Source: Octopus sinensis
Taxonomy: Eukaryota
Direction: 5' to 3'
Length of the DNA stretch: 64,000 bases
Assembly: GCF_006345805.1 (NCBI RefSeq)
Contig: NC_043000.1
Location: 46,624,001-46,688,000, forward strand
Below, piece by piece: positions 24,555 to 27,036 of the stretch (its first letter is position 1; each line of letters begins with the position of its first letter). The translations under genes were made by a program, and so were the position numbers. A model generated the notes under the pieces. It was not told where the DNA came from and did no database searches. It was given only the letters and a program-made list of their open reading frames with translations.

Positions 24555-26154
24555 AATCTCAAGTCAATTTGAGTTGAAGCCATTTCACTTACTTCAACTC
24601 AAATTACTGCATTGAACTTTCGTTACAGGGGCAACCACAAGAACAGGGTAAACTGTATGATATTTGTAGATTTTGAGTAAAAATATTCGCTAAATTTTTT
24701 GGAAAATAGAAAATGTACACGTATCTCCTGAGGTGATTTCAAGAGGTATCTCATTAAAATAAACTCTATTTTGCAAGATCCCTTCTTGGTCTTCATATAC
24801 AAAAATGGCAAATTAAGTTATACAGCTTCCTTCTTGTAGAAGATCCATAACAAACATCAGATTCAAAAATAAACAAATACACAATATAACGAAAAAAAGC
24901 ATTAGATATAACTGTTAGTAGATATGGATGTACAAATGCCCACACATACGGAGTCTGGCACATGTACACTCACTCATACAAACTCACATGCACATATAAG
25001 TATGCACACATGTGATTTAGTGCACATATGCTTCCACACAGAATTAATATCTACTTAATTCTGTGTACGAATGTGTGTGCCAAACCACATGTGTATGTGC
25101 TTGTATAAGGTGAGATACTACCTTCTCACCTTTTCTCGCTTCTTCTCTCATTCCATTTTTAATTCATTGTGCAATATGGGCAGTGCCTGATGACTGTGCC
25201 GAGATGTCAGACATGTTATAAAACAATGTTTGGCTTGTTCTCAACACATGAAGCTAATAGTAGCACATAAAAACATGTATTATGTTTATTAGATAATACA
25301 CACACAAATACACACACACACATGTATATATATATGTAATTATATATATGTGTCATTGTGTTTATGTTTTTCCCATCATTGCATGACAACCAATGTTGGT
25401 TTGGTTATGTTCCATAACTTCACAGTTAGGCCAAAAAGACACTGATGGAATTAGTACCAGACTTAAAATATTAGTACTGGGGTTTGCTTCTTTGAATAAA
25501 CCTTTCAAGAAGGTGCAACAGCATGGCTGCAGTCCAATGACTGAAAAACAAGTAAATGGTAAAAGATAAAGATACAGTTTATCATTGGTATCACTAAAAA
25601 ATAAGCTTACAAGATAAAAAAATAAAGTTATACATTGTGGAAATGCTTGTAATGAGAGAAGAGTTTCTGGAGTAATAGATCTCATGAATATTGATTACAT
25701 GGGGGAAAATATAGTTTCGATTTTAATCAAATTTTATATACATGAGAGATGGCTGAAACATTTCAAATGTAAGTTACAAGACAGCAATTTGATGTATTGT
25801 TTAGTATGATCTACTGAAGGAACTCTAGATGGTCTTTCAGATTGCTAGAAATAGCAACCAAATCTCCCCCAAATTTTACTCTTATATTTTAATGAAAGAA
25901 AAAAAGATATTAGTCATATATATATCCTTGAAAAGAGAGTGCTGCTTGGGTTAACTTCTGCATTTGTTATAGATGTTGTATAGCTCATGATCATACTTGA
26001 TTCAGCAGAATTATGGGTCCTCAGTAGTCAATTGAATGATGAGGTGTAATCCATGGATGTATATAAGCTGAATATAAGAAATGACTTGAATCAAGACAAT
26101 GTGTTTGAGCCATGCTAGCATGGAAAGCAGACAAATCATGATGACAAAGGCAAC

Positions 26155-26679
26155 TGTAGTGATGACATCTTGGAAATCTCCAGCACGCATGTGCAGAGTT
26201 GGATTCTTCCAGAAGGCTGCATGTTCGAATCACGTCAGGGTCACCAATTGTAACAACATGAGAGGTCCCCGCACTGGAAGGGTGCAGCTCGAATCCTTTA
26301 CATTAAATATTAATGGAAGGAAAGAGTCAAGACTTCCAATTAACTTCAACAGTATAAATATTTATTTCTTGATTCGCAATATATACATTTCTTCTTTCTG
26401 TGCGAATTGGCAGCCTAGGAGCTTATCACAGTAGTCAAGTGGAGTGAACCAAATACTCTCCGTTGAAGCATAGTGGAGATATGCCACGAGGTAGTAGCTT
26501 CAGAGAGCTGCTAAAACACGACTGTTCTGTTCAACTGATGGCATTCGAGAGAATGATACAAGGGGATTTTGCTGCAGCTGGTTTTCTGCACATGCACATG
26601 AGAGAACTTTCAGTAGGCCTCCCAGAAGAATCCAACTCTGTGCATGCATGCTGAAGATTTCCAAGATGGCATCACTACA
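26155..26679 (-). mobile_element. LTR (26249-26679), extended tRNA-Trp PBS (26210-26246) and inverted LTR start (26155-~26215), with 4-bp TSD
   Basis: Minus strand reads TGTAGTGATG...AATAAA...GTTACA-AT-TGGTGACCCTGACGTGATTCGAAC. TSD CAAC at 26151-26154 and 26680-26683. Confidence 0.8.
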
Positions 26680-27036
26680 CAACAATGACGATTTTGATGA
26701 TGATGTATTTAATATTAAGTCTAATTGTGGGTGGTGGAATGACAAAAATATGTATGAGCTTCCATACAATTTTCACCTAATAAATTTCACTCACATCAAT
26801 AGAAGACATTTACTGGCTGAGGGTGCCATGCTTCACATTGTTGTGAAGCACACATCATAAACACACAGCAATGGCTACACTTCTGTGCAATATCTTAAGA
26901 TAACAGCAGGGTGGTTATGATCGGAATGACTTTTCCAATGTATCTTCTCTATCAGGATTGACTTAAAGAAAGACAAAAACAAATGATTTCAACTGATTGG
27001 AAGTGTTATCATATACATGTTTTGTCTTGGTATAAA

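Follow-up and report, generated by a model that had tools for sequence, protein, structure and literature searches.

The window analysed here, a 64,000-nucleotide stretch of the Octopus sinensis genome, contains a single-copy element of 525 bp (26155–26679) that consists of a long terminal repeat (LTR), a spacer, a partial tRNA copy and an inverted arm, with nothing left over. Read on the minus strand, the element comprises a 431-bp LTR (26679–26249), the dinucleotide AT, a 37-nt complement of the tRNA-Trp 3' half and a 55-nt inverted LTR start. The LTR (26249–26679, minus strand) is complete, of the Ty3/Gypsy type and approximately 10 % diverged from its closest copies, and its CA end is separated from the primer binding site (PBS) by a 2-nt spacer (26247–26248, minus strand), the same spacer as in the parent element. 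The adjoining segment (26210–26246, plus strand) is a copy of mature tRNA-Trp(CCA) that spans positions 40–76, includes the non-encoded CCA and matches the host gene L074 with CCA added at 35 of 37 nt, both mismatches being changes of CpG to CpA. This copy encloses the usual 18-nt PBS span (26229–26246, plus strand) and a correctly read A58 (26228, plus strand). An inverted copy of the first 55 nt, or U3 end, of the same LTR family (26155–26209, plus strand) supplies a second TG...CA attachment end, and the whole is bounded by the direct repeat CAAC (26151–26154 and 26680–26683), a target-site duplication (TSD) of the 4 bp that characterize the family. The preliminary description of the locus had named the tRNA-Trp 3' half with its CCA, the 2-nt gap to the LTR, the inverted LTR start and the CAAC duplication, all of which were recovered.

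The arm and the tRNA copy meet at a putative template-switch junction (26210–26217, plus strand), where tRNA letters C40–C47 lie over LTR columns 56–63 and six of the eight are identical to the usual LTR letters, in line with the switch at a short homology that had been proposed. The junction letters follow the tRNA and not the usual LTR; the two mismatched columns carry the tRNA-type letter in 13 % and 3 % of LTR copies, and pairing of the nascent strand over these 8 bp would include two G–T pairs. Together with the junction, the inverted arms (26155–26217 and 26617–26679) are 63 nt long and 87 % identical, with TGTAG termini; 55 nt of the arm are pure LTR and the final 8 nt are tRNA letters. 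The arm differs from the element's own LTR at 5 of 55 positions, four of which are CpG-type columns or explained by them, and arm and LTR have no informative derived change in common by which a cis donor could be told from a trans donor. The single-strand fold (z −8.6) simply restates the inverted repeat.

The element lies within a GAT-repeat stretch (26110–26150 and 26684–26708), the decayed tail of a common repeat, which is present on both sides of the TSD, and the neighbouring repeats are presumably akin to octopus SINEs. A contig from an independent run (X3) spans the left flank–arm junction and agrees with it throughout, and the internal arm–tRNA junction is taken from the genome assembly. 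No empty allele and no contig joint skipping the element was found in five runs, in whose repeat-rich contigs gaps prove nothing, and the left flank matched four short repeat ends only, with no paralogous empty site. Neither ARAGORN nor Rfam detected a tRNA in the window, in line with the copying of only half a tRNA; the tRNA part lies outside the LTR and is devoid of the 5' half that carries box A.

The LTR family and its full-length parent

In the 2.72-Gb genome, the LTR has 417 candidate copies, of which 40 were scored, the best being approximately 90 % identical. The LTR of the element departs from the commonest letter of 38 copies at 40 of 431 columns, including 18 CpG columns. Among 29 other copies, an exact 4-bp TSD was found in 18 and a 3/4 match in two, while an exact 5-bp TSD was found in none; some of the remaining copies carry a polypurine tract or a PBS, and two are truncated. 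A polypurine tract precedes two of the LTR copies. One full-length copy (L095) has paired LTRs (407 identities, 25 mismatches), the TSD GTCA and the Pfam domains RVT_1, RT_RNaseH_2, Integrase_H2C2 and rve in the Gypsy order, which bears out the reading of 26249–26679 as an LTR. The family combines TG...CA LTRs paired around reverse transcriptase (RT), RNase H and integrase with a PBS, a polypurine tract and a short TSD of fixed length, and, judged by these sequence features, the element is a derivative of a Ty3/Gypsy LTR retrotransposon.

The PBS of L095 consists of 10 perfect nt, followed by a degenerate tRNA-like leader that reaches position 45 and contains three insertions. The start of this parent-type leader is common to nine sites within one mismatch, and its three insertions are absent from the element, while the perfect 37-nt tail and the inverted arm of the element are both absent from the full-length parent. 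The preliminary description had put a PBS at normally no more than 18 nt; the commonest PBS in a genome-wide set of 68 sites ends at position 59, and the parent, instead of a plain 18-mer, has 10 perfect nt and then a degenerate leader to position 45. As far as position 45, the leaders of L095 (517–555) and L196 look like the complement of the tRNA, with an A for position 58, and the 10-nt perfect PBS of the L095/L196 family is kept over nine sites, with no reversion to the 18 nt of the tRNA.

In a younger sister family, six copies have paired LTRs, a clean PBS of 18 nt and a leader in common. In several copies of this sister family (L167, L169, L170, L171, L174, L179 and L182), an ordinary 18-nt strong-stop or leader is joined straight to pol, and such joins yield internally deleted two-LTR elements. 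Two LTR copies (L051 and L057) contain a tandem array of approximately 50-nt units derived from LTR columns 33–95.

The junction that distinguishes the element is present once. Among 147 candidates for a 101-nt query consisting of arm, tail and LTR end, of which 40 were scored, full coverage was obtained for the element only, and a 24-nt pattern across the tRNA–arm junction with at most two mismatches matched the element and one site without tRNA context, compared to one match in the control. Since the junction is single-copy, there is no MITE family, and no further copies that share this internal structure but differ in their TSDs were found genome-wide. The junction search therefore favoured an aberrant integration over a new family, the two outcomes that the preliminary description had set against each other.

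tRNA-Trp tails across the genome

A 29-nt pattern covering tRNA positions 73–45, in which position 58 was left free and at most one other mismatch was allowed, matched 74 genome sites and gave 0 control matches. The 74 sites were sorted into 34 genes or gene-like sequences, 33 CCA-bearing partial copies with unshared continuations, five sites with a shared family continuation and two others. The 33 CCA-bearing copies, which include the element, pass position 45 and each continue differently; the element is hence not the one-off oddity that it had seemed at first, being one of 33 such loci. The TGG that precedes the partial copies precedes 0 of the 34 gene-like matches, and CCA is present in the copy of the element. 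Host tRNA-Trp(CCA) genes, the presence of which had been presumed, were found, many of them in one cluster, L074 being identified by ARAGORN; the gene has A58, G37 and G26. The cluster (G000:C6:69.58-70.14 Mb, L070–L084 and L128–L131) comprises more than 20 tRNA-Trp(CCA) genes with degenerate copies interspersed.

The ends of the tails are not evenly distributed, although the apparent ends are blurred by homology at the junctions. Eight of the 33 tails end at position 38, immediately before G37 (p 2.5e-4 versus uniform ends over positions 44–26), and 21 end at positions 35–41, including three at position 35; six others end at 26–31 and one at 11. Position 58 is substituted in 11 of the 33 tails (seven A and four C in the cDNA sense) and in 0 of the 34 genes (Fisher p 1.5e-4). 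Against a rough per-site background of 2.9 %, the excess has a p of 1e-9, the gene control being the fairer comparison as the pattern left position 58 free. The remaining 22 tails have no substitution at this position, and the tail of the element itself stops at 40, within the homology, rather than at 38, with A58 unsubstituted. As far as the letters of these copies can tell, the class likely bears the RT signature of m1A58 read-through and of a probable stop at m1G37, although ends and misreads at RT-blocking bases are apparent at the level of the class and not in the element's own copy.

A separate pattern, in which nothing but the LTR end and the initial 16 nt was fixed, retrieved an unbiased set of 68 LTR-end–PBS sites. 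Of these, 51 end at positions 53–61, most often at 59 (20 sites), which corresponds to the classical 18 nt, and 17 reach position 49 or further, among which two are inherited leaders (L196 and L224) and two come from one locus. A search for tails of other isotypes, restricted to tRNAs with G52 behind TACA plus 2 nt, gave six matches (two of them tRNA-Trp) versus four in the control, and within this narrow pattern there was no sign of such tails.

The sequences that the tails join are diverse. Both ends with a TSD were resolved for the element, L037, L042, L126 and L212 (exact) and L108 (3/4). An inverted LTR that starts or ends at U3 follows the tail in the element, in L108 (approximately 490 nt) and in L065 (approximately 120 nt), where the junction shows homology of approximately 10/12 nt to the locus's own inverted U3. 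In L037, L042 and L126, the last of which falls outside the 74 sites because of an indel, the tail is joined to the last 7–9 nt of U5. Other tails lead into coding regions: RNase H in pol, followed by a second LTR and the TSD GATG (L212), the end of integrase (L035 and L089, with 5-nt microhomology to integrase in L035) and the interior of pol or gag (L088, with 3-nt microhomology). In L216, L217, L218, L220 and L221, the tail runs directly into non-element DNA, and these loci are possible one-ended integrations. Comparison of the left flank with the 4 nt that follow the tail gives a 3/4 match in L216 and arguably in L218, and no such match in L217, L220 or L221. For most of the 33 tails, a second end was not found: no paired or inverted LTR was present in 20 of 22 aligned loci when unrelated repeats were set aside, the inverted LTR of L215 is only 69 % alike and has no TSD, and the TSD search found none for L065, L089 and L215. 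The sibling junction of L038 is present in a contig of an independent run. The longest tail seen is that of L132 (G000:C25:2846730-2846880), in which an LTR end is followed by a 65-nt tRNA copy to position 11, after which the sequence folds back to its own PBS, with inverted U5.

A small non-autonomous family of eight loci (L113, L114, L106, L191, L200, L211, L223 and L224) has a leader that consists of a PBS and a 32-nt tRNA-Trp tail. Past the tail follow an LTR-end-like stretch and a second, shorter PBS; then come approximately 150 internal nt, a tract of purines and the start of an LTR. The family looks like a U5-jump read-through product turned heritable. In L211, the unit is found in a 79-bp tandem.

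Proposed origin and its alternatives

The element is likely an integrated by-product of Gypsy reverse transcription that arose by over-extension of strong-stop DNA, a microhomology template switch and the action of integrase. It contains a copy of the mature primer, with CCA, that extends beyond position 59 and is absent from the parent. In the host tRNA-Trp, A58 would be m1A and G37 would be m1G, the latter being a modification that we take to be present on tRNA-Trp; no statement on m1G37 of tRNA-Trp was found in PMC13023127. Normal plus-strand strong-stop DNA contains 18 nt copied from the primer and halts before m1A58 (PMC8599865), and the 68-site set shows this 18-nt mode in the octopus genome. 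Minor strong-stop products of HIV-1 RT have been reported to end at 55, 54 and the modified 37, the last of which is not an active template (PMC13191261). m1A causes arrest as well as misincorporation (PMC4787781), and m1G37 and m2,2G26 cause dominant RT stops (PMC5066629).

In the case of the element, plus-strand strong-stop synthesis would have passed A58 of the tRNA-Trp primer and continued to the anticodon arm. The over-extended strand would then anneal at the PBS, and extension of the minus strand over the LTR would generate the left U3 end. After the second strand transfer, the tail is presumably not extendable owing to its mismatch to the minus strand, and an unpaired tail of 19–21 nt could prime wherever a short match is in reach. 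It is likely that this unpaired 3' tail re-primed on a plus-sense U3 template through the imperfect 8-nt match, and copying to the 5' end of the donor would produce the second U3 end. This donor may have been a strong-stop molecule that had been displaced or, by snap-back, the 5' end of the same strand. Integrase may have joined both U3 ends in one step, with removal of the flaps by host repair; such concerted integration is suggested because the TSD is a direct 4-bp repeat of the length typical of the family. The preliminary suggestion of a read-through strong-stop fossil, integrated via two U3 ends, gains support from the comparison with the parent and from the 32 sibling loci.

Other origins are considerably less probable. 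There is a small chance that the tRNA copy stems from the minus-strand side, with RT or host repair copying, at a later stage, a tRNA primer that had not been removed, or that a LINE RT deposited a tRNA retrocopy beside an LTR, as any RT acting on mature tRNA would leave the same signature of CCA, stops and misreading, and no LTR is demonstrable upstream of seven of the 33 tails. However, at least 25 of the 33 lie in PBS position and orientation behind a demonstrable repeat or LTR end, with the spacer of the family in question (several families are involved), incomplete primer removal would be mechanistically the same RT event, and the tail of the element has no poly(A) or LINE-type long TSD. 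A rearrangement after insertion, i.e. two opposite LTR insertions or chromosomal fold-back repair followed by deletion, is improbable. The abundance of the LTR family and the occurrence of inverted LTR neighbours (L215) would make it conceivable, but the outer ends are bounded by one direct 4-bp repeat, fold-back would invert the flank, and the 37-nt CCA-bearing tRNA copy, being absent from the parent, would be left unaccounted for. It is marginally less credible still that the long tail was passed down by a parent subfamily, not among the sampled copies, whose PBS is natively extended. The parental leaders of L095 and L196 that resemble the tRNA complement and the small family of eight loci that inherits its 32-nt tail are in keeping with such inheritance; on the other hand, the nine parent-leader sites carry three insertions that the element lacks, and five other loci with the element's LTR type (L217, L220, L221, L132 and L124) have perfect 37–65-nt tails, each continuing differently. 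The least plausible origin is an LTR-derived non-autonomous family with terminal inverted repeats (TIRs), MITE or Ginger-like, moved by a DNA transposase, which the preliminary description had offered as an option and which accords with Ginger in the 63-nt TIRs, the TGTAG termini and the 4-bp TSD (TIR size and TGTNR pattern according to PMC2836005), but is contradicted by a junction confined to the element, by the lack of a second copy despite approximately 10 % divergence, and by a TSD that is neither CCGG/CCGT nor RTATAY and has the length of the parent's own.

Beyond the element, a broader reading, for and against which we hold the case to be evenly weighted, is that the genome constitutes a fossil record of tRNA modification. 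It would preserve dozens of integrated Gypsy strong-stops in which m1A58 of the germline tRNA-Trp was misread and synthesis stopped at m1G37, C34 and G26. Primer overrun would then be a regular route instead of a dead end, leading, via microhomology rescue, to elements with a pair of inverted LTR ends (Ginger-like TIRs reached in a single step), to new tRNA-bearing non-autonomous families such as the eight-copy family with its inherited 32-nt tail and second PBS, and to leaders pre-matched to the over-extended primer. Such a record would provide in vivo germline evidence of RT stops on a modified primer and of the failure and rescue of second strand transfer, and past states of tRNA modification could be read from assemblies alone. 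The element itself is inert, and its worth lies in being a clean example of the class.

Relation to known systems

In its workings, the proposed process resembles a retroviral second strand transfer that fails. Mis-primed second strand transfer is known to give rise to deletions in retroviral vectors, and Ty1 cDNA ends are known to be untidy. The vector deletions resemble the octopus loci in that a microhomology jump of the strong-stop 3' end causes an internal deletion, and the 18-nt jumps in L167, L169, L174 and L179 look like such events; unlike the octopus tails, however, the tails of vector and Ty1 products are at most 18 nt, and these products are not known to have two U3 ends. The mis-priming of second transfers, and tRNA sequence inserted into DNA that had not integrated, are likewise described in older virology, and novelty is claimed for the integrated fossil class only. 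In the full-text literature, where older virology is sparsely covered, no report was found of integrated, genome-wide over-extended primer copies with modification signatures, and the accessible portions of PMC3187697, PMC7472051 and PMC6088434 contain no integrated over-extended primer copies. The PBS mutations of mouse endogenous retroviruses do not match modified positions, a result that concerns the 18-nt PBS only (PMC7472051).

The closest counterparts are the over-extended HIV-1 products P3–P5, in which RT likewise reads through A58 and is then stopped by the next base that blocks it, the modified 37 being one of these, and in which the extra tRNA copy mismatches the minus strand (PMC13191261, PMC8599865). 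These products were obtained in vitro and in cell work and are described as capable neither of completing synthesis nor of integrating, the over-extended product being described as non-functional (PMC13191261). The octopus loci, in contrast, are germline-integrated with TSDs, belong to a Gypsy clade primed by tRNA-Trp and are rescued by jumps to U3, U5 and pol. This indicates that read-through past m1A58, described as unable to integrate, apparently often integrates in a Gypsy clade. A primer over-extension sequence was reportedly described by Muthuswami in 2002. Lentiviral and spumaviral over-extension sequences match the tRNA downstream of the PBS beyond position 59, as do the L095 and L196 leaders, but in HIV this element is a few nt long and reaches 54–55 (PMC13191261), whereas the Gypsy leaders extend imperfectly to 45, with A at 58.

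Ginger1 and Ginger2 have TIRs of 40–270 bp that begin with TGTNR and a 4-bp TSD, and their TIRs have been suggested to derive from two LTRs in opposite orientation (PMC2836005). The 63-nt arms of the element, with their TGTAG termini, fall within this range, whereas CAAC differs from the TSD of Ginger1 (CCGG/CCGT) and from the RTATAY target of Ginger2, and neither a transposase nor dispersed non-autonomous copies were found, all 525 bp being otherwise accounted for and single-copy. In the element, the inverted LTR ends would stem from one reverse-transcription accident and not from two insertions, which would offer a concrete mechanism for the conversion of an LTR into a TIR-bounded unit, a step that the Ginger paper calls unclear (PMC2836005). 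The Helenus, Cassandra and Ajax TRIMs also contain tRNA-derived sequence inside an LTR-derived non-autonomous element; theirs, however, is a Pol III promoter that has nothing to do with the primer and is ascribed to SINE insertion (PMC10886601), whereas the octopus element carries, in PBS position, the 3' half of the very tRNA that serves as primer. Instead of two direct LTRs with a tRNA-derived Pol III promoter, the element has one LTR and an inverted fragment.

Some further peculiarities were seen among tRNA-Trp-primed repeats. In L065, L117, L118, L197, L201 and L215, the PBS is preceded by TAAA rather than TACA, and L065 starts with TTTAGC and ends with GCTAAA, these ends representing either unusual LTR termini or a decayed CA. 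In L115, a SINE-like repeat is inserted within the PBS, the LTR end and the PBS start are duplicated, and the tRNA tail lies behind the insertion.
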